DNA from: an uncultured Candidatus Saccharibacteria bacterium | GTDB lineage: Bacteria; Patescibacteriota; Minisyncoccia; Phycocordibacterales; CAIRYW01 | Reading direction: 5' to 3' | Assembly: GCA_964487135.1 (NCBI GenBank) | Contig: CAZAOU010000002.1 | Coordinates: forward strand, 934-64,933 | Length of the DNA stretch: 64,000 nucleotides | Shown here: piece by piece, positions 3,440 through 63,370 of the stretch | Layout: each line of letters starts with the position of its first letter | How positions within the stretch are numbered: position 1 is the stretch's first letter | Made by a program: the position numbers and the translations under genes | The notes under the pieces: model-generated | What the model was told of the DNA's origin: nothing | Database searches by the model: none | The model's input: the letters and a program-made list of their open reading frames with translations, nothing else

Positions 3440-4159
3440 ATGCTTGCTTCTTATGTACATTTTTTTGGTAGTGCAATTTTTTTCTTCTTATTTTTGCTGT
3501 TTCTACATATATACCGATCAAAACATAACCTATATATATTTTTTTACTCAATAACATTTCTTTTTCTGTTTCTCTTTACCTTTGCAAGTTCAGTTCCGAT
3601 AATAATTTATGGTGGTAATAATATTTCCGCTTGGGCAAATGTTGGAGCAAATATTTTTGTATTTTGTTTAATTGCGACCTGCTTAAGAGTTCAGCTGGCA
3701 GTTCAAGATCCATTTTTAATCAAAAATATTAAAAAATTAGATATTATTCTTTTATTAGTAGCTCTCGTATCTACAACAATTCAAATAATGCATTTACAGA
3801 ATCCTGAGGTAAGCCCCAAAGGAGTTGTTTGGCATTTAAATCCGATATCAGGATGGATAATAACAATAACTGCGTTCTGTTACGGAATATACTGGAGTTA
3901 TTTTTTTGGAAAAATTGCACGCCTTTTAAAAGATACGAGATTAAAAATAAATATGTGGATTCTTTCTGTAAACGGTGTGGTGCAGGGTAGTTCGGCATTA
4001 TTCTTTTTTGTAATGGAATCTCCACAAAAACAACTTTTTGGCTTAATACTACTCTGCGGAAGTGGTCTAATAAGTCTTATATTATTTCTTATCCCTGAAA
4101 TTATTTTTCACATAAAACTATCTAGGGATAATAGAAAAATGGTAGGGGTGTCTACTTAA
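3440..4159 (+). CDS. hypothetical integral membrane protein
   Basis: 239-aa ORF, highly hydrophobic with ~6 helices. Confidence 0.45.
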   Translation: MLASYVHFFGSAIFFFLFLLFLHIYRSKHNLYIFFYSITFLFLFLFTFASSVPIIIYGGNNISAWANVGANIFVFCLIATCLRVQLAVQDPFLIKNIKKLDIILLLVALVSTTIQIMHLQNPEVSPKGVVWHLNPISGWIITITAFCYGIYWSYFFGKIARLLKDTRLKINMWILSVNGVVQGSSALFFFVMESPQKQLFGLILLCGSGLISLILFLIPEIIFHIKLSRDNRKMVGVST

Positions 4160-5165: not shown

Positions 5166-6494
5166 ATGGAAAGAACATACATCGGAAATTTAAAAGAAAA
5201 GATTGGACAGGAGGTGTTGGTGAAGGGTTGGGTTGATACAAGGCGCGATCAAGGAAAACTTATTTTCTTTGATTTTAGAGACATGACTGGCTTTGTACAA
5301 GGAGTGATTTTACCGAACACAACAGAAGCTCACGCTGTTGGTGAAAAAGTCCGTCCAGAATGGGTTGTTGAAGTAAAGGGAAAAGTAAACAAGCGCCCAG
5401 AAAAAAATGTTTCTGCTGATAAACAGAATGGAACAATCGAGTTAGAAATTCTTTCTATGGAAGTTCTAAACGAAGCAGAAACACCTTTTGAATTGGGTAG
5501 CGAGCTTAATCTAGATACATATTTAGATTATCTGCCATATACTTTGAGGACCCAAAAAGCGAAAGATATCTTTACAATGCAAGCATCAATTGTTGATGCT
5601 TATAGGCAATCTCTTATTAAACAAAATTTTACAGAGTTTATGGCACCAGCCATAGTTGGAGGTGATGCAGAAGGAGGAGCTGCAGCTTTTAAAGTTGAAT
5701 ATTTTAAGGATAAAACAGCTTTTTTGGCTACGAGCCCTCAATTCTACAAACAAATAATGGTAGGTCCTTTTGAAAGAGCTTTTACTGTTGCAAAAATATT
5801 TAGAGCTGAAAAAAGCGCTACAACAAGGCATATAAGTGAGGCGGTCTGTGTCGATTTTGAAATGGGATTTATAAAAGACGAAAAAGAACCAATGCAAGTT
5901 TTAGAAAATTGCATTAGAGATGTTGTAAAATCGGTTTCTGAAAAAAATCAAGATATTTTTAAAAGATTTAACGTAGAAGTTCCAAAAATACCAGAAAAAA
6001 TTCCTGTATTTACATTGACCGAAGCTCAGGAAACAATAAAAAAAGAATTTGGTAGAAATATAGAAGACATAAACGACATGTCACCAGAAGATGAGAGACA
6101 AATTTGTGAATATTCCAAAAAAACTTATGATTCTGATTTTGTTTTCATAACTCGGTTTCCAACAAAAAAACGAGCATTTTATACTTACGAAGATGCTAAT
6201 GAGGCTCCTTTTTCGCGTGGATTCGATCTTTTGTTTAGAGGCCTAGAAATAAACAGTGGTGCTCAACGTATACATAATTATGACTCATTGGTTGCAAGGA
6301 TGGTTGAAAGGGGACTAGATCCTCAGAAATTTTCTTTTTATCTCCAAGCTTTTAAATATGGAATGCCTCCTCATGGGGGATCCTCAACTGGTTTAGAGAG
6401 ATTTACTGCGCGAATGTTACAACTTTCTAACATAAAAGAGGCAACATCATTTCCAAGAGATATGTCGCGAATTGACAATCCTCTTTCAAATTAG
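5166..6494 (+). CDS. class IIb aspartyl/asparaginyl-tRNA synthetase (AsnRS or archaeal-type non-discriminating AspRS)
   Basis: N-terminal OB anticodon-binding region; motif 2 'FRAEKSATTRHISE'; motif 3 'GGSSTGLERFTARM'; 442 aa. Confidence 0.85.
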   Translation: MERTYIGNLKEKIGQEVLVKGWVDTRRDQGKLIFFDFRDMTGFVQGVILPNTTEAHAVGEKVRPEWVVEVKGKVNKRPEKNVSADKQNGTIELEILSMEVLNEAETPFELGSELNLDTYLDYLPYTLRTQKAKDIFTMQASIVDAYRQSLIKQNFTEFMAPAIVGGDAEGGAAAFKVEYFKDKTAFLATSPQFYKQIMVGPFERAFTVAKIFRAEKSATTRHISEAVCVDFEMGFIKDEKEPMQVLENCIRDVVKSVSEKNQDIFKRFNVEVPKIPEKIPVFTLTEAQETIKKEFGRNIEDINDMSPEDERQICEYSKKTYDSDFVFITRFPTKKRAFYTYEDANEAPFSRGFDLLFRGLEINSGAQRIHNYDSLVARMVERGLDPQKFSFYLQAFKYGMPPHGGSSTGLERFTARMLQLSNIKEATSFPRDMSRIDNPLSN

Positions 6495-6529
6495 AGGATT
6501 TGTAATATTTTAATTTTTGTTGTATAAAT

Positions 6530-6785
6530 TGGTTCAAACAAGCCAATGAATGCACAAAAAGAAACGTCCAAACCACGCAGACACATCCCGACCTGGCGCA
6601 TCGAAAAAGATGCCCAAACAGCACGCAGTGCACACCAACACACCTATGACCCCAAAGTTGCCGGCACAGCAATTTCCTGGTCTGGCGTGGCGAACTCCGG
6701 GATTAAGCGCTGAAGAAAGGCGCAAACTCGGTCTTGGACCTTAGTAAGGAGGATGGCAGACGGCCACCTCTATTTTTTATGCTCA
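6530..6785 (+). ncRNA. GC-rich (~55%) intergenic segment, candidate structured RNA ending in an intrinsic terminator; identity unknown
   Basis: Sharp GC jump between aspS/asnS and scpA. Hairpin 'gcgc-tgaagaaag-gcgc'. 3' hairpin 'gaggatggc-agacg-gccacctc' followed by TATTTTTT at ~6745-6780. The 64-aa ORF here has no protein-like features. Confidence 0.2.
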
Positions 6786-6806
6786 AAATGCTAGAATAAT
6801 TAATAC

Positions 6807-7538
6807 ATGCAAGATTTCAAAATAAAAACTGAGCAATTTGAAGGACCACTCGACTTGCTTTTAAGTCTTATAGAAAAACGAAAACTTCTCATCAATGAGA
6901 TTTCTCTTAACCAAGTAACTGATGACTATATAGAACACATAAAATCTATATCAGAATACTCACTCAAAAATAGAGCTGACTTTATTGCTGTTGCCTCAAC
7001 CTTAATTCTTATAAAATCTCGCTCACTTCTTCCAAACCTTTCTCTTACCGACGAAGAAGAACAAAGCGTTCAAGATCTAGAAGAGCGTCTAAAAATTTAT
7101 AAAAAAATCAAAGAATTATCTTCCCATGTTGAAAAAAAATTTGGAAAAAATTCAATATATTTTGCGGAAGAATCAAAAATAATAAATCCTGTATTTTCGC
7201 CACATGAATCTATAAAAACCAGTATTCTAAAAGATGCTTTGTATGGGCTGTTAGCAAGAATTCCTATTCCACAAAAGAAAAAAGAAGTGATTATTAAAAA
7301 AGTTATTTCGATGGAAGAGATGATAGAAAATTTAACAACAAGAATTCAAGGTGCTCTTAAAATGTCTTTTAAAAAATTCAGTGGGGCAGGAGAAGAAAAA
7401 ACAGAAAAAGTAAATGTTATTGTGAGTTTCTTGGCACTATTAGAACTTGTAAAACAAGGAATTTTAGACGCAAAACAAGATACTCATTTTGATGATATTG
7501 AGATGGAAACAGTAAGCGTTGGAGTGCCTAGATATTAA
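6807..7538 (+). CDS. scpA: segregation and condensation protein A
   Basis: N-terminal 'FEGPLDLLLSLIEKRKLLINEISLNQVTDDYIEHI' matches the ScpA signature. Confidence 0.8.
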   Translation: MQDFKIKTEQFEGPLDLLLSLIEKRKLLINEISLNQVTDDYIEHIKSISEYSLKNRADFIAVASTLILIKSRSLLPNLSLTDEEEQSVQDLEERLKIYKKIKELSSHVEKKFGKNSIYFAEESKIINPVFSPHESIKTSILKDALYGLLARIPIPQKKKEVIIKKVISMEEMIENLTTRIQGALKMSFKKFSGAGEEKTEKVNVIVSFLALLELVKQGILDAKQDTHFDDIEMETVSVGVPRY

Positions 7539-7695
7539 GGGACGCTTCAGAAAATACAGTCCCAAAATGCACAAAAATTTATTGCTATAAATTTTCTCTG
7601 TCCGGTGTCGCCACACCTACCAAGGCATTTTAAGACTATATTTTCTTCCTCTTTTAAGTTTAAAGCCCTTTTTAATAAGTCAAAAAAGGGTTAAA

Positions 7696-19193: not shown

Positions 19194-19204
19194 ACATTAA
19201 GACA

Positions 19205-19238
19205 AAAGCCCCGTTCGCCTAGGCGAACGGGGCTTTTT
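19205..19238. terminator. bidirectional intrinsic terminator
   Basis: 'aaaagccccgttcgcctaggcgaacggggctttttt' perfect hairpin plus T-run. Confidence 0.65.
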
Positions 19239-19249
19239 TGTTTATGTAT

Positions 19250-24641: not shown

Positions 24642-24995
24642 TTGTATTTTAAAAACATGAAAGCAATCCTGTTTATTCTGCTCGCCATCGTCGTTCTTTT
24701 CACAGCCAACCAAGCCTTGGCGCAAAAACCCGACTTCTCCGAACTAGAGAAGAAAATCGAGAAATATGAGCCGCTTCCGGATGGAAGCGGCTACCAGATC
24801 ACCCTCAAACCTGAATACGAGGATGAGCTGAAGAAAAATCCCATACCCATCATCTCGATGCTCTTCGTTTGGGTCGTGGAAACAAAGCTCAAAGGGCTTC
24901 ATGGCGAATGCCTCGCCAACGCGAAAGGCCGAGTGGTGACCTTCAAAATCAATCTCAAAGAGACACCACCCCCTCGTCCCCCGCAAAGAGCATAG
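24642..24995 (+). CDS. hypothetical secreted protein with Pro-rich C-terminus; GC-rich gene
   Basis: Signal peptide 'MKAILFILLAIVVLFTANQALA'; ~50% GC; ends 'TPPPRPPQRA'. Confidence 0.4.
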   Translation: MYFKNMKAILFILLAIVVLFTANQALAQKPDFSELEKKIEKYEPLPDGSGYQITLKPEYEDELKKNPIPIISMLFVWVVETKLKGLHGECLANAKGRVVTFKINLKETPPPRPPQRA

Positions 24996-25043
24996 CTTCT
25001 GGCGGGGTACAATTTTATACTTATTTTTAGTGTCTTTCACTTT

Positions 25044-25080
25044 CCACTTCACACTATCCACTGTTCACTATTTCTTATCC
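25044..25080 (+). promoter_or_regulatory. DnaA-box-like motif cluster upstream of dnaB
   Basis: Contains CTATCCACT, GTTCACTAT, CTTATCCCC and TTTATCCAG, ~70-100 bp upstream of the dnaB ATG. Confidence 0.3.
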
Positions 25081-25148: not shown

Positions 25149-26537
25149 ATGTCTTCAAAGCCCATAAAAAAAGAAAGTTTGATGGTTCCTCCTCAACACC
25201 TAGAAAGTGAAATGGCTCTTTTAGGATCAATAATGCTCAAACCAGATGCAATGTATGATATTGCAGATATTGTTTCTCCCGATTCTTTTTATGCAGAAAA
25301 ACACAAAATTATTTTTTCTGCAATGCAAGAACTTTTAGCAAAAAACGAACCTATTGATCTTCTTTCTCTTTCAACAAAATTAGAATCGAAAGGATCACTT
25401 GAAGCAATTGGTGGAAGAAGTTATCTAGCAGAACTTATTCAAAGTGTTCCATCTGCTTCAAACATCACATATTATGCAGATTTAATAAAACAGAAATCAC
25501 TTTTAAGAAGACTTATTGAAGCTGCACAAAAAATTACAGAATTGGGTTTTGCAGAAAATGGCGAAATAGAAGAAATTTTAGACAAAGCCGATAAACATGT
25601 TTTTGCTGTATCTCAATCAACAAGCTCTAGAAAATTTACAGAACTTAAAGATACACTTGGAGAAGCGTGGAACCGTCTTGAAACTCTTCATCAATCAGGT
25701 GGACAGCTTAGAGGAATTCCAACTGGTTTTAGAGATTTAGACAATATGCTTTCTGGTTTCCAAAAATCAGATCTTATTATTCTTGCAGCACGACCTTCCA
25801 TGGGAAAAACTGCTCTAGCTCTTGATATTGCTCGCCAAGCAGCGGTAAATCACAATGTGTCTGTTGGAATTTTTTCTTTGGAAATGAGCTCGGGACAGCT
25901 TGTAGACAGAATGCTTGCCGCAGATTCAAAAGTAAACTCTTGGAAGCTTCGAACCGGAAAACTATCGGTTGATAAAGATTTTGATTTAATTAGAAATTCT
26001 TTGGATAGACTTTCAAAAGCTCCTATTTATATAGATGACGAACCGGGAAGTAATTCACTAAAAATGCGCTCAATCGCAAGGCGTTTGAAACGAGAAAAAG
26101 GATTAGGAATGATTGTTGTAGATTACCTACAACTAATGAGTCCAGTGCAGAGCAAAAATTCAGACAACGTTGTTCAACAAGTTACAGAAATTTCCAGATC
26201 TTTAAAACACTTGGCAAGAGAGCTTGAAGTGCCTGTTTTAGCTCTTTCACAGCTCAATCGTTCTGTAGAAACGCGGGGAGGTACTGGCCGACCAAAACTT
26301 TCAGACCTTAGAGATTCAGGATCTATTGAACAAGATGCTGATGTGGTGATGTTTATTCATCGTGAAGATAAATATAAAGATGATTCCGACAGAAAAAATG
26401 TTGCACAAATTCATGTTGATAAACACCGAAATGGGCCTGTAGGAAGTGTTGAACTATTCTTTGATGAAGAAAGAACAACTTTCCTTAATCTTGAAAGATC
26501 AAACATTTCTGACTTTACTAATGATGATGTTTTTTGA
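25149..26537 (+). CDS. dnaB: replicative DNA helicase
   Basis: DnaB N-domain, Walker A 'ARPSMGKTALAL', Walker B 'IVVDYLQLM', 'SQLNRSVE'. Confidence 0.9.
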   Translation: MSSKPIKKESLMVPPQHLESEMALLGSIMLKPDAMYDIADIVSPDSFYAEKHKIIFSAMQELLAKNEPIDLLSLSTKLESKGSLEAIGGRSYLAELIQSVPSASNITYYADLIKQKSLLRRLIEAAQKITELGFAENGEIEEILDKADKHVFAVSQSTSSRKFTELKDTLGEAWNRLETLHQSGGQLRGIPTGFRDLDNMLSGFQKSDLIILAARPSMGKTALALDIARQAAVNHNVSVGIFSLEMSSGQLVDRMLAADSKVNSWKLRTGKLSVDKDFDLIRNSLDRLSKAPIYIDDEPGSNSLKMRSIARRLKREKGLGMIVVDYLQLMSPVQSKNSDNVVQQVTEISRSLKHLARELEVPVLALSQLNRSVETRGGTGRPKLSDLRDSGSIEQDADVVMFIHREDKYKDDSDRKNVAQIHVDKHRNGPVGSVELFFDEERTTFLNLERSNISDFTNDDVF

Positions 26538-30236: not shown

Positions 30237-30332
30237 TCATATATTATATATCATTAATAAAACCAAAACATCATTTTGCCAATAAACCAAAAAACTGTTA
30301 TATTTTTTTTGTTTTTAGTTTATTCCTGTATT

Positions 30333-30364
30333 CTCTATCCACTATAAACTACTAACTATCCACT
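30333..30364 (+). promoter_or_regulatory. two copies of CTATCCACT motif in the tRNA-Glu/pilin intergenic region
   Basis: 'ctatccactataaactactaactatccact'; first copy fused to a TATAAA -10-like hexamer ~27 nt upstream of the tRNA. Confidence 0.3.
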
Positions 30365-46595: not shown

Positions 46596-47270
46596 TTACG
46601 AAAGAGCGACTAATGATAAAAGTTGTTTTACGGAAGCAGAGTGAGAGGGTAAATAATTTAATGCAACCGCAATACTTTCTAAACTTTTTGTATTTTTTGA
46701 AACATCTTTTAATAATTCTTCATGCAAAGCCATTAAAAAATCTTCTACCTCCTCTTTTGAAATTTCTTCATTTTTATATTTATCTGCCATAGATTCAGCG
46801 TAAGAATTTTTCTTTCCAATTGATAATCTTAAAAAAGATTCTGCCTCTTTTTGAAATTTATTTTTTTGGTCTATTTTAATTTCTCGGCTTTCAACCATTC
46901 TAGAAAAAAGAGTAGGAAGTAATATATTTCTTGGGGCTAAAACATAAAAACAAACAGACTCCGATGGTTCTTCAAAAGTTTTTAGAAGAGCATTTTGAGA
47001 TATTGAATCTGCACTCCAAAAAGAAACTAGGATATGTAATTGTGACTCTTTTACTGGAACAGAAAGTGTTCTTTCTTTTATTAATCTGGCATCTTCAATA
47101 AGCAATTTATCGTATTCAAATACTAAAACATCTGGGTTAGCTGAAATTGAAGACGATAGTTTTGTTTCAATAAAATCTTTTAGTTTATCTAAAGATACAT
47201 TTTTTCTTTCAAAAAATAATGCGTGGTGATTTATGGTGGATAGTGGATAGTGAATAGTGGATAGTGACAT
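46596..47270 (-). CDS. minimal DNA polymerase III delta'-like clamp-loader subunit (HolB-like)
   Basis: 'NALLKTFEEPSESVCFYVLAPRNILLPTLFSRM' matches the clamp-loader sensor-1/SRC block; degenerate P-loop region 'HHALFFERKN'; no Zn module. Confidence 0.55.
   Translation of the reverse strand: MSLSTIHYPLSTINHHALFFERKNVSLDKLKDFIETKLSSSISANPDVLVFEYDKLLIEDARLIKERTLSVPVKESQLHILVSFWSADSISQNALLKTFEEPSESVCFYVLAPRNILLPTLFSRMVESREIKIDQKNKFQKEAESFLRLSIGKKNSYAESMADKYKNEEISKEEVEDFLMALHEELLKDVSKNTKSLESIAVALNYLPSHSASVKQLLSLVALS
47229..47266 (-). repeat. tandem DnaA-box-like repeats (CACTATCCACT x3 plus a variant) overlapping the holB-like start
   Basis: + strand 'ggtggatagtggatagtgaatagtggatagtgac'; on the gene strand it reads atgTCACTATCCACTATTCACTATCCACTATCCACC. 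Confidence 0.5.
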
Positions 47271-55154: not shown

Positions 55155-55364
55155 TTGTATAATATAAATGTGAAATTCCTGACTTTTCTTCTGGTTCTTT
55201 CGTTGGCTTCCACACTAACTTCTTGCACACCCTTGGATCTGGTGAAAATGAGTCGTGATCCTGCATTTCACAAATTGATAGCACCAACCACACCCCCAAC
55301 AAACAGTGTTGCCCAAGAAACAAACGAGGAGACAGCACCAGCCTCCGCTACCCCGCCACTTTAG
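55155..55364 (+). CDS. small putative lipoprotein (69 aa)
   Basis: Signal 'FLTFLLVLSLASTLTSC' with lipobox-like L-T-S-C; Pro/Thr-rich tail; GC-rich. Confidence 0.3.
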   Translation: MYNINVKFLTFLLVLSLASTLTSCTPLDLVKMSRDPAFHKLIAPTTPPTNSVAQETNEETAPASATPPL

Positions 55365-55952: not shown

Positions 55953-56519
55953 CTACTGAACCAAGACCGCAATCATTTGGTCTGGTTCAATTGGCGCACT
56001 GGAAGGACGAAGCAGAGCTCCGAGATATGGGTCTCCGTCTTTGGAACACCCAACCTCAAGAACAATACTGTCGCCCATGCCGGGGACATCGATAGGTTGA
56101 TGGGCCAACCAGATTTTCTCTCCGGCAGGCTGTTTTGCCATAACCTCCCTCATAAACAGTCCGAGGATAGGATCAATCTTCGGGGCCTGACCGAAGAAAC
56201 TCTTCTCGGCAATCCCAGCCACACCAAGTCGCCCTGCCGAGCAAATACGAACCTTGTATAAGCCCGGTGGAATCTGTTTGATCAATCCTTGCTCGACAGC
56301 CCTTTTGACATGGTCAGAGACCATCTCTCGGGGACTGATACGGAACCGATCCAAATTGTTACAAAGGATAGCTGGAGTGACATAATCAACAGGGATATCA
56401 ACCACCCGATCAAGAATGGTGACTTTCGCACGGCCTTCAAGAAAGGCCGTGACTGCCTCAAGTTCTTGATCTGATCCGCGTCCAGCACGGATCATTTCCT
56501 GACGGATTTTTTCAATCAT
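55953..56519 (-). CDS. hypothetical wHTH-containing protein (AbiEi-antitoxin-like fold?), GC-rich
   Basis: 188 aa, ~52% GC; 'ISPREMVSDHVKRAVEQGLIKQIPPGLYKV' resembles helix-turn-helix + wing 'RGxY'. Confidence 0.35.
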   Translation of the reverse strand: MIEKIRQEMIRAGRGSDQELEAVTAFLEGRAKVTILDRVVDIPVDYVTPAILCNNLDRFRISPREMVSDHVKRAVEQGLIKQIPPGLYKVRICSAGRLGVAGIAEKSFFGQAPKIDPILGLFMREVMAKQPAGEKIWLAHQPIDVPGMGDSIVLEVGCSKDGDPYLGALLRPSSAPIEPDQMIAVLVQ

Positions 56520-56572
56520 AATCTGAATTCCTAAGCTGGGCGGGTTTAATTTGGTTTAAGTTTTGTTAGTTT

Positions 56573-56616
56573 CGCCACAGCAGAAAATGGCTTTAAAGCC
56601 ATTTTCTGCTGTGGCG
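56573..56616. repeat. perfect 44-bp palindrome (22-bp arms, no spacer)
   Basis: 'cgccacagcagaaaatggcttt|aaagccattttctgctgtggcg' between the GC-rich island and the DUF1211 gene. Confidence 0.8.
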
Positions 56617-56684
56617 AATATACTCTTTTCTCTCAAAGAACTTGAGAAGTTATACAACTTTTTATAGAAAAGTCAATTGTTATG

Positions 56685-57996: not shown

Positions 57997-58560
57997 ATGT
58001 TCTTTGTAACAGTGTTTGCGTTCGTCATGTTTTGCCCCTTCTACTCATCTGTTTTTGAGTGGATACTTCATCGCTACGTTATGCACCGACCTGTCGGTAA
58101 ATTTCGATACGCCTACGAAGCTCACGCTCTAACCCACCACCGTATTTTCGGGTCAACAAAAACATACCACCTCCAAAACCCTAAGGACAAGGAAACAATT
58201 CCCATGGCGTGGTGGAATGGACCCCTGTTAATAATCATTGCATCACTGCCAGCAGTTCCGATTTGCTGGCTCATTGATGTGTGGTGGCCATTATGGGTGC
58301 TGGCATTTGAATTTACTCTATACTACGGAGCATACGAGTGTCTTCACTGGTATATGCATCTCCCGAAGGCTCGGCGGATTGAGTTTTGGGGAATATTCAA
58401 GTGACTAAACGGACATCACCTGCTACACCACAGGTATCCGGGCAAAAACTTCAATGTAGTATTTCCATTTGCCGACTGGCTTTTTGGAACACTACTCAGG
58501 AAATCACTGGCAAGTTTTGACCAGCCCCGAGGAATTGGAGTCCCTGACGTGCAACCGTAG
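57997..58560 (+). pseudogene. fatty acid hydroxylase / sterol desaturase-family gene interrupted by an in-frame TGA (58402-58404)
   Basis: His boxes 'HRYVMHRP' and 'HALTHHRIF' lie before the stop; after it the same frame continues 'LNGHHLLHHRYPGKNFNVVFPFADWLFGTLL'. That segment holds the third His box and the WxRLFGT-like motif. GC-rich. Confidence 0.6.
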
Positions 58561-58621
58561 ACAGCTTTCAAGTCTCGCTCTAAGCCACACAGCAAAGAGC
58601 GAATTTTTTATAATTACAAAC

Positions 58622-58656
58622 AAAAGCCGGGCACCCTAGGGCGCCCGGCTTTTGTT
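58622..58656. terminator. intrinsic terminator (gccgggcaccctagggcgcccggc)
   Basis: GC-rich hairpin with A-run 5' and T-run 3'. Confidence 0.6.
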
Positions 58657-58676
58657 ATTAAATTATTTTGCCTTCC

Positions 58677-61696: not shown

Positions 61697-63370
61697 TTAT
61701 TGTCCCCAATAACACGCACCACCCTGAGCATTACATGAACTTATCGTACTGAAAGACGAACAATTTATACTTGAAGGACCGCACGAACCGGATTGAGGAA
61801 TATAAGTATAGCTACAACCATATCCACTACTGCTGTACTGTTGACAAGTAGATGAATCTAAACCTGAACAACTTCCGGAAGCATAAACGGGGTGTTCTCC
61901 ATTACAAGCATTTGAAGCACTATCAAACGAACAACCTTGTAAGCTATTACAATAATCCACCTTCTGCTGATAATCTTCATCCTCTGGATTACCGCCGTAA
62001 TAGATATTGCAACTTTGATTGCCTGTATAATAACTATAATCACCTGTGCAAGAATAACCCTCCGCCGTGCCGTTCCAAATACACAGGCCACCAGTTGCAT
62101 TACAATTAGAACTTGAATTTATATACTGGCAACTTGCACTATCATAATTGTGACAACTTCCTCCTCCCGGCTCACAAATATCTCCCACACCATTATTATC
62201 GTAGTCATCCTGCCCTGGATTATAATTTGTCGGACAATTGTCTAAACTATAAGCAATTCCATCGTAGTCAGGATCATAACAAGCATCCCCAGCTCCTCCA
62301 GCTGAACCTTGCGCTGACTGACTAGGGTTATAAACATTTGGACAATTATCACTTGAATTAGGAATTCCATCGGCATCAGAGTCAGCATCAGGATCACACA
62401 CATCTCCTATACCATCATTGTCAGAATCAGCCTGGTTTGCGTTAGAAGTGCTTGGACAATTATCTTGAGAATTAACAATTCCATCACTATCACTATCTAT
62501 ATTATCTTGATCACACACATTTCCTATTCCATCATTGTCAGAATCAGCTTGATTAGCGTTAGAAACTGATGGACAGTTGTCTGTTTCATTAGGTATTCCA
62601 TCGCCATCTGAATCGGCGGCTGTCTCACACACATCTCCTATTCCATCATTATCAGAATCAGCTTGGTTTGCATTAGAAACTGACGGACAGTTGTCTGTTG
62701 AATCTGGCACGCCATCACCATCTGTATCTACTGGATTATTACATGTGTCTGTGGAATCTGTCGGACAAGAATCGCAAGAGTCTCCTCTACCATCATTATC
62801 TGTGTCTGTTTGAAGAGCATTTGAAACAGATGGGCAATTATCTGCATTATCTTTTACTCCATCATCATCTAGATCGTCATCCGTTGTGGTTTGAGTGGTT
62901 GTAGCAAAATATGTTGAATATCTAATTGATACAGTATTTTCAGGACATAAATTTAAACTACCACTTTGAATATACTGACTTGAAGAACAAGAGTTATAAA
63001 CAATTCCCTGCTGTTCACCATTTTCGTCGGTAATAATAGGAAATTCCAAAGACTGTTCCCCAAATGGAGCAAAACTCGAATTTATACGCGTTGTAACAAC
63101 CTGACCATTTACCATACAATCATCGGCAGTAATACAACAATATGAAGAACCCTCATCACAACTTGGATATCCTCCATTGTCTTGATTATATTCTTCAAGA
63201 GCCAATTGAACTTGGTGAGCTTGAACAACTGTTTTTGCGTCATTTGCTTTCTTCTTACTCGTTGCAACAGAAGCTGATACCACACTTGAAAGAAGTGAAA
63301 TTATAGAAATTACCATCATTAACTCTATGAGGGTAAAACCTTTTTTAAAAAACTCTTTTTTAAAATACAT
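61697..63370 (-). CDS. large type IV pilin-like protein with thrombospondin type-3 Ca-binding repeats and a Cys-rich C-terminal domain (putative pilus adhesin)
   Basis: N-terminal 'KKGFTLIELMMVISIISLLSSVV' prepilin motif. About six repeats of 'D-DGxGDxCD…DxDGDGxPDxxDNCPxVSNANQADSDNDGIGDVCD'. C-terminus has >25 Cys. Confidence 0.7.
   Translation of the reverse strand: MYFKKEFFKKGFTLIELMMVISIISLLSSVVSASVATSKKKANDAKTVVQAHQVQLALEEYNQDNGGYPSCDEGSSYCCITADDCMVNGQVVTTRINSSFAPFGEQSLEFPIITDENGEQQGIVYNSCSSSQYIQSGSLNLCPENTVSIRYSTYFATTTQTTTDDDLDDDGVKDNADNCPSVSNALQTDTDNDGRGDSCDSCPTDSTDTCNNPVDTDGDGVPDSTDNCPSVSNANQADSDNDGIGDVCETAADSDGDGIPNETDNCPSVSNANQADSDNDGIGNVCDQDNIDSDSDGIVNSQDNCPSTSNANQADSDNDGIGDVCDPDADSDADGIPNSSDNCPNVYNPSQSAQGSAGGAGDACYDPDYDGIAYSLDNCPTNYNPGQDDYDNNGVGDICEPGGGSCHNYDSASCQYINSSSNCNATGGLCIWNGTAEGYSCTGDYSYYTGNQSCNIYYGGNPEDEDYQQKVDYCNSLQGCSFDSASNACNGEHPVYASGSCSGLDSSTCQQYSSSGYGCSYTYIPQSGSCGPSSINCSSFSTISSCNAQGGACYWGQ

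Follow-up and report, generated by a model that had tools for sequence, protein, structure and literature searches.

GC-IGR screens of AT-rich bacterial genomes returned 31 singleton regions in Thermovirga lienii that were left as 'unnamed: insufficient evidence to classify' (Stav et al. 2019, PMC6429828). Among described small RNAs, the Rsa RNAs of S. aureus act through unpaired UCCC motifs that bind Shine-Dalgarno sequences (Geissmann et al. 2009, PMC2790875). The locus described here is a GC-rich block at positions 6530–6785 of a 64 kb stretch of DNA (the window), between the genes for an Asp/Asn/Lys-type tRNA synthetase (aspS) and ScpA (scpA). It is best, though tentatively, explained as a lineage-specific, GC-rich, non-protein-coding insertion into the aspS-scpA junction of a Parcubacteria/Paceibacteria-type genome, which would give rise to a stand-alone orphan small RNA.

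The GC-rich block and its transcription signals

The genes of the window and their closest relatives assign the genome to the Parcubacteria/Paceibacteria, within the Candidate Phyla Radiation; these relatives are metagenome-assembled genomes (MAGs) that carry the labels Taylorbacteria, Nomurabacteria, Kaiserbacteria and Paceibacterota. The genome is a singleton, with the best AspRS match among GTDB species representatives at 77% aa identity and the best ScpA match, besides the exact sequence, at 61%. The features of the locus are as follows.

5166–6494, + strand: class-II Asp/Asn/Lys-type tRNA synthetase gene (aspS), 442 aa, with domains PF00152 and PF01336 (Pfam)
6477–6500, + strand: AT-rich hairpin over the aspS stop codon (TAG, 6492–6494), followed by an interrupted T-rich tract (terminator scan; −10.8 kcal/mol, z −2.3)
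6500–6528, + strand: sigma-70-like promoter candidate, TTGTAA (6500–6505), a 17-nt spacer and TATAAA (6523–6528), read from the sequence
6536–6745, + strand: non-coding body, GC-rich (52%) and A/C-rich (62% A+C) (composition, predicted fold, coding tests)
6546–6713, + strand: 55-aa ORF (ORF list), overlapping the next
6550–6744, + strand: 64-aa ORF (ORF list)
within the block region, − strand: overlapping ORFs of 63, 50 and 81 aa (ORF list)
6748–6778, + strand: intrinsic terminator, a 9-bp stem with a 1-nt bulge and a 5-nt loop, then A and T6 (fold prediction, hairpin scan)
6789–6809, + strand: extended −10 element of scpA, TGCTAGAAT (6789–6797), 9 nt 5′ of the ATG (6807), with the same arrangement in two related loci (L069, L004)
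6807–7538, + strand: scpA (ScpA, PF02616; Pfam)

The aspS-scpA spacer is 312 nt long, AT-rich at its edges and GC-rich in its core. The GC content is 51.6% over positions 6530–6785, where the + strand is A/C-rich (A80 C73 G59 T44), and 53% over 6546–6775. The 150-nt maximum (57.3%, from 6573) is the top GC peak of the window and lies about 4 sd above its mean (34.7% GC, sd 5.7%, 150-nt windows). The original prediction had put a GC-rich intergenic block at this place, ending in a hairpin and T-run terminator, and both are present, the latter as a 9-bp hairpin and T6 on the + strand; its figure of about 30% GC for the genome is below the value found within the window. The block has no second copy in the 64 kb window and no terminal inverted repeats, its internal repeats being only short and imperfect, and no parS site was found.

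Signals on the + strand follow one another in the order weak hairpin, promoter-like site, body, strong terminator, scpA promoter. The hairpin over the aspS stop codon is taken as a weak, possibly leaky terminator of trpS-aspS. The promoter candidate downstream of it agrees with the consensus at 9 of 12 positions and fell below the filter of the promoter scan because its −10 hexamer lacks the final T. It implies a transcription start at about 6535–6537, and the same TATAAA hexamer recurs upstream of tRNA-Glu and in the cassette of a related locus (L004, see below). An own promoter of the block at this site is a candidate at the level of consensus agreement, and promoter-like matches are common in the AT-rich DNA here (7 observed versus 3.7 expected in 1.3 kb).

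The terminator stem is formed by pairs 6748–6752/6767–6771 and 6754–6757/6763–6766, with the loop at 6758–6762 and the T6 run at 6773–6778, and has a predicted energy of −13.3 kcal/mol. It has the form of a Rho-independent terminator, a GC-rich hairpin directly before a U tract on the transcribed strand, and was overlooked by the consensus terminator scan because of the 1-nt bulge. It is one of 15 hairpin-plus-T5 sites on the two strands of the window (128 kb scanned), and a terminator-like site as near to the 5′ end of scpA occurs in two of 75 related loci.

A separate scpA promoter lies beyond the terminator. Its −10 arrangement recurs in relatives as TGATATAAT (L069) and TGCTAAAAT (L004), and −10-like hexamers ending 6–12 nt before the ATG are found genome-wide at 25 of 63 ORFs, Shine-Dalgarno-like (SD-like) motifs at just seven of 63. 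The start of scpA thus appears to be of the leaderless type, with its own promoter downstream of the terminator of the block, so that the block would be transcriptionally insulated from scpA.

These signals suggest the following course of events. GC-rich non-coding cargo would have been inserted into a normally tight aspS-scpA junction. Transcription of the + strand would begin at the block's own sigma-70-like promoter (about 6536), or come from read-through of the weak aspS hairpin, and would be halted at the intrinsic terminator (6748–6778). Started at this promoter, the RNA would be about 245 nt long; with read-through, it would form a 3′ tail of about 285–290 nt on the aspS mRNA. Shielded by the terminator, scpAB would be transcribed anew from the leaderless-type promoter at 6789–6797. 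That the block is a transcribed non-coding insert is probable; that the RNA is functional has somewhat less than an even chance.

The aspS-scpA junction in relatives

Comparisons were made with 80 GTDB loci that carry aspS relatives and with six loci found through ScpA homologues, and they cover the neighbourhoods of aspS and scpA. Among 68 relatives, aspS and scpA are separated by 50 nt or less in 25, by 51–500 nt in nine, and by larger distances in 34. Since the two genes lie within 50 nt of each other in those 25, the block is regarded as an insertion.

The same short spacers bear on the reading of the block as a cis-regulatory leader (riboswitch or attenuator) that governs read-through into scpAB. 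A promoter-like site, a 240-nt GC-rich leader and a terminator 25 nt before scpA do make up an attenuation-like layout, but the spacer before scpA is 50 nt or less in the 25 relatives just mentioned, and the scpA −10 element, which is conserved, lies 3′ of the terminator, so that scpA does not depend on read-through. Inspection by eye found no alternative, anti-terminator pairing to either terminator arm, and no Rfam riboswitch or leader matched. A leader of this kind is very improbable.

Small ORFs with their own signals are present at the junction in three relatives:

L004: 83-aa ORF, GC 0.53 in a 0.40 locus, GC1/2/3 of 0.61/0.40/0.57
L008: 54-aa ORF on the opposite strand, GC1/2/3 of 0.60/0.27/0.71
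L054: 72-aa ORF

Two of these (L004 and L008) are GC-rich micro-ORF cassettes. They share the insertion site with the block and are similar to it in size (about 250–460 nt) and in GC content (0.53 in AT-richer surroundings), but their cargo ORFs have a clear codon periodicity and the block has none. The order of elements in L004 (TTGCTT-17-TATAAA, cargo, hairpin and T run, scpA −10 element) is that of the block, and the right flank of the block (6746–6809, comprising the terminator and scpA promoter) can be aligned to its L004 equivalent (z 5.15; reached by none of 500 shuffles). The body of the block does not align with L004 as DNA (z 1.5), and as protein the block could not be aligned with either cassette (best z 2.4 in 18 tests). 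The L004 spacer as a whole had scored as a possible global homologue (z 3.7), and was rejected when the comparison was split into body (1.5), left flank (z 1.1) and right flank (5.15); the global score is due mainly to the AT-GC-AT layout that the two spacers have in common. Likewise, the resemblance to a CA-rich spacer in another relative (L022) is a low-complexity A/C match.

Nothing related to the block was found by blastn, nhmmer or tblastx in the 80 syntenic loci and the six further loci. A covariance model built from the single sequence (184 positions, 48 pairs) recovered only the block itself, both with filters on (772 kb, 86 loci) and with filters off (77 kb). A scan of JGI metagenomes with one 20-mer from the block gave two chance matches, three 18-mers scanned against viral contigs gave nothing beyond chance matches, and blastn in 'distant' mode against plasmids and phages matched the AT-rich flank and nothing in the block. 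The block is therefore an orphan, absent from every relative examined.

Five other GC-rich islets of the window are orphan ORFs, among them:

179–769: GC-rich orphan ORF islet, no Pfam match
24657–24995: GC-rich orphan ORF islet, no Pfam match
55953–56519: GC-rich orphan ORF islet, no Pfam match
57997–58404: GC-rich orphan ORF islet, followed by a GC-rich tail of about 200 nt that has no ORF and reaches to a terminator

These ORFs are un-ameliorated, with GC3 values of up to 0.61. In this genome, a high GC content points to accessory DNA of recent acquisition no less often than to structured RNA and, as the other islets are orphan ORFs, GC-richness alone is no evidence of RNA structure. The block, too, was probably acquired horizontally.

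Tests for protein-coding and housekeeping RNA genes

The 64-aa ORF had been described as the only ORF in the block, and as not protein-like. It overlaps a 55-aa ORF on the same strand and ORFs of 63, 50 and 81 aa on the other, and its unlikeness to a protein gene is borne out. The GC content at the three codon positions is flat in the 55- and 64-aa ORFs (0.52/0.55/0.54 and 0.58/0.52/0.51), the spread being at most 0.07, versus a median of 0.20 in the GC-rich ORF islets of the window and 0.28 in native genes. Both products are basic, of low complexity and without a hydrophobic core.

Database searches gave the same picture. A word-index search of 5.8 billion protein clusters found none that shares a word triplet with the 64-aa ORF, and the six frames joined into one query yielded 4475 word candidates in that collection, none of which scored at E ≤ 10. 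A phmmer search with the 64-aa ORF against 1.84 billion representatives returned just three translated tandem-repeat (satellite) artefacts, two of them without a matched stretch. No Pfam match was found for the block ORFs, and the source record annotates none of them as a gene. Five were looked up exactly in a collection of 15 billion proteins and were absent from it, while the AspRS of the contig and another of its small ORFs were present. An alignment of the segment to a protein-coding gene, which would have spoken against an RNA, was not found either by tblastx against the loci of relatives or with all frames against the protein clusters. By every test run, the block is non-coding.

A small protein gene (the 55-aa ORF at 6546–6713 or the 64-aa ORF at 6550–6744), comparable to the micro-ORF cassettes of relatives, is thus unlikely. 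It would fit with the small ORFs that occupy the same junction in L004, L008 and L054, and a missing SD is no argument against translation where such motifs are rare in the genome; the A-rich, unpaired 5′ end (6536–6565) might even allow SD-independent initiation. The codon-position profiles of the L004 and L008 ORFs are, however, strongly uneven where those of the block are flat, the products of the block have neither homologue, Pfam match nor source gene call, and the ATG lies 17–21 nt past the −10 candidate versus 6–12 nt in the leaderless genes of the genome.

The block had also been put forward as a place to look for the RNase P, SRP, tm or 6S RNA, none of which is annotated in the window. 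Their absence was confirmed, since Rfam models at gathering scores matched two tRNAs only across the whole 64 kb, and ARAGORN likewise found two tRNAs and no tmRNA; this absence carries no weight because the window is just 64 kb of the genome. The block itself is none of these RNAs as far as the covariance models can tell. With lax filters and E ≤ 10, positions 6400–6900 (501 nt) gave no match to RNase P, SRP, tmRNA or 6S RNA and matched seven unrelated, low-scoring families. The models of RNase P RNA (RNaseP_bact_a/b and related, with the P4 core and catalytic domain) and of the domain IV hairpin of small SRP RNA were without a match at gathering scores and at E ≤ 10, and the tRNA-like domain and tag peptide ORF that are hallmarks of tmRNA were not found in the block by ARAGORN or Rfam. 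Measured from promoter to terminator, the unit has about 245 nt, versus the 330–400 nt or so expected of RNase P RNA, and its predicted fold is multi-branched, unlike the rod of 6S RNA (closing stem, large central bubble, terminal stem). A loose pairing of 'GAAACGUCC ... GGACCUUA' in the block faintly recalls helix P4 of E. coli M1 RNA. An ORF-poor spacer of 863 nt in a related locus (L001) looked RNase P-like by eye, and Rfam was negative there.

A highly divergent housekeeping RNA (6S, reduced RNase P, SRP or tmRNA) is accordingly the least probable of the readings considered, with only a slight chance of being correct. A GC-rich intergenic block in a small AT-rich genome, in a window where such RNAs are missing, is what might be expected of one, but essential RNAs are conserved and nothing related occurs in the 772 kb of relatives' loci, and neither the size nor the branching suits RNase P or 6S RNA. 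An RNA from the block would most likely be a stand-alone orphan small RNA and not a housekeeping RNA, and the block is removed as a false lead to the missing housekeeping RNAs.

Predicted fold, possible function and comparison with known RNAs

The + strand body is predicted to fold into a multi-branched structure (MFE −57.7 kcal/mol, identical to the centroid). A closing helix (6566–6574/6730–6739) and an inner helix (6585–6590/6698–6703) are predicted, along with hairpins at 6594–6616, 6621–6631, 6639–6689 and 6707–6723. Compared with dinucleotide shuffles, the folding z-score is −2.1 to −2.4 on the + strand (body −2.10) and −0.7 to −1.2 on the − strand (body −0.68). The preference for the + strand agrees with the strand of the promoter candidate and terminator. 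Ensemble diversity is 17.8 (40.8 ± 11.8 in shuffles) and the probability of the MFE structure is 0.026, a value that 1% of shuffles reach; the fold is better defined than in 96–99% of shuffles.

A control set of 256 windows, each 210 nt long and taken from this genome, gave a mean z of −0.49 (sd 1.6), with 11% of the windows at z ≤ −2.1. Against the background of its own genome, the folding signal of the block does not stand out. In the predicted fold, GC makes up 66% of the paired and 40% of the unpaired positions, much as in the two tRNAs, but the MFE algorithm gives such a split in any sequence. The composition (more C than G, more A than U, and long unpaired stretches rich in A and C) is atypical for tightly folded RNAs. 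The proposal of a structured non-coding RNA therefore holds in part: the block is non-coding in every test and ends in a + strand terminator, while its structure signal is shared by 11% of genome windows and has no homologues to support it. Judged by the refuting condition that came with the proposal, the lack of both an Rfam match and covariation support, its specific claim is refuted.

Alternatively, the block may be what is left of DNA gained by horizontal transfer, inert and perhaps passively transcribed as a tail of aspS, with a role only for its terminator, that of insulating scpAB. We give this reading about one chance in three, only slightly less than a functional small RNA. It agrees with the several other foreign, un-ameliorated GC-rich islets of the window, one of which (57997–58404) has an ORF-less tail, and with a junction that is variable in relatives and holds GC-rich cargo in L004 and L008. 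The block has neither a homologue nor a structure signal above background, and what it has in common with L004 is confined to the terminator/promoter flank, the bodies being unalignable. Against a remnant, no trace of a former ORF was found: codon periodicity is missing, and none of the frames resembles a protein at E ≤ 10. The block also looks complete, its 5′ flank being promoter-like and its terminator clean, and derivation from a larger cassette would need an internal deletion that spared both ends. Streamlined CPR genomes have a high coding density and tend to lose useless DNA, and the well-defined fold, as judged by the shuffles, likewise speaks for more than debris.

A functional small RNA is the reading we prefer by a narrow measure of probability, and we infer the transcription, folding and function of such an RNA from the signals and predictions described above. 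Several observations weigh against function: no search gave a homologue, 11% of genome windows fold as well, the promoter match is of the consensus-like kind found in AT-rich DNA, and relatives hold small protein cassettes, not RNAs, at the same junction. The stronger proposal of a new class of structured, functional sRNA gene of about 245 nt, confined to one deep-branching Paceibacteria lineage and forming a self-contained promoter-RNA-terminator cassette at a junction that serves as landing site for GC-rich micro-cassettes, is rather unlikely, at about one chance in five. If the small RNA is real, it would join a very short list of candidate regulatory RNAs from the Candidate Phyla Radiation, where RNA biology is almost unexplored, and non-coding RNA genes would then be seen to move as small GC-rich cassettes into reduced genomes. 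The locus also counsels caution, as the rule that a GC-rich intergenic region means a non-coding RNA needs a background control.

What the block shares with the RNase P, 6S, small SRP and tmRNA genes is just that an RNA gene in an AT-rich genome can generally be expected to be rich in GC and to end in a terminator; it differs from them in having no model match at E ≤ 10, no tRNA-like domain or tag ORF, and the wrong size and predicted architecture. The block resembles the Rsa RNAs, and stand-alone or 3′ UTR-derived sRNAs of that kind, in that it is intergenic and non-coding, with a promoter-like 5′ flank, a stable terminator hairpin and C-rich stretches (CAUCCCGAC and GACCCCAAAG). Unlike the Rsa motifs, these stretches lie for the most part in predicted helices, and the block is not conserved. 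An anti-SD mechanism of the RsaE type is unlikely in a genome nearly devoid of SD motifs (seven of 63 ORFs).

Another parallel is with the unnamed GC-IGRs, which the block resembles as a long, high-GC intergenic region in a compact, low-GC genome, with no ORF match and no homologues (PMC6429828). It differs from them in that its genome also has GC-rich coding islets, which weakens the premise that high GC means structured RNA. In the terms of those screens, the block would be classed as one more 'unnamed' singleton (PMC6429828).

Spacers flanking scpA

The junction between the tRNA synthetase gene aspS and scpA, compared among aspS-bearing loci of related genomes (L001-L080), varies in length: it is 50 nt or shorter in 25 of 68 loci, 51–500 nt in nine, and longer than 500 nt in 34. 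Inserts of ~1.04–1.08 kb and ~1.42–1.46 kb recur in subclades, and small ORF cassettes lie between the two genes in L004, L008 and L054. The spacer of L001 (5326-6190) is 863 nt long, ORF-poor and ~49% GC, and gave no match in Rfam. This spacer and that of L002 (5326-5525) have in common a long palindrome, GCGGATTTTGCATAC...GTATGCAAAATCCGC, directly 5′ of scpA; this palindrome possibly acts as operator or terminator.

The spacer between scpA and scpB (7539-7695, 157 nt) is predicted to fold into a long hairpin, followed by a second one directly 5′ of the scpB ATG. Relative to shuffled sequences its folding z is −3.4; the window control (the same score over windows of the same genome) gave −3.6 to −6.5. 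The 12-mer AATGCACAAAAA is common to this spacer and the 5′ end of the GC-rich non-coding block upstream of scpA (6530-6785), a match that is expected by chance.

GC-rich ORFs

Five GC-rich ORFs are considered here:

179-769, + strand: orphan ORF islet, clear coding periodicity
24657-24995, + strand: orphan ORF islet, clear coding periodicity
55953-56519, − strand: orphan ORF islet, clear coding periodicity
55155-55364, + strand: orphan ORF islet of 69 aa, codon-position GC nearly flat (0.49/0.47/0.40)
57997-58404: ORF of 135 aa

The GC content of the four islets is 0.45–0.50, compared with 35% for the genome, and GC3 reaches 0.61 among the three longer ones. One islet ORF encodes a protein of 112 aa that carries a signal peptide, the 69-aa product is lipoprotein-like, and none of the four had a Pfam match. 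The islets look like horizontal acquisitions of recent date. The 135-aa ORF is followed by ~200 nt of GC-rich DNA holding only short, broken ORFs, and this tail ends at a strong bidirectional terminator (58619-58657); the region 57997-58657 may represent an acquired gene that is frameshifted or decaying.

Repeats, palindromes and gene starts

Several repeated or palindromic elements occur across the window:

25037-25080, 30332-30363 and 47233-47267: DnaA-box-like repeat clusters (CTATCCAC / GTGGATAG)
56571-56618, 19194-19247, and the regions of 39282 and 17079: GC-rich palindromes, perfect or nearly so, with runs of A and T on either side
62181-62875: tandem repeat within a coding region, five diverged copies of a ~95 nt unit spaced 114–222 nt apart

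The tandem copies look like part of a repeat-domain protein. The GC-rich palindromes are probably bidirectional intrinsic terminators, which would mean that canonical terminators are in use in this genome. The first DnaA-box-like cluster, directly 5′ of dnaB (25149-26537; replicative helicase), may mark an origin-related or DnaA-regulated region.

Of the 63 ORFs in the window that are 120 aa or longer, 25 have a −10-like hexamer ending 6–12 nt upstream of the ATG, frequently of the form TGnTAnAAT, compared with 7–12 at control offsets (examples are the starts at 3440, 4214, 6807, 15986, 21110, 57360 and 58934). Shine-Dalgarno-like 4-mers were found at just seven of the 63. Judged by these sequence patterns, gene starts in the window look leaderless.
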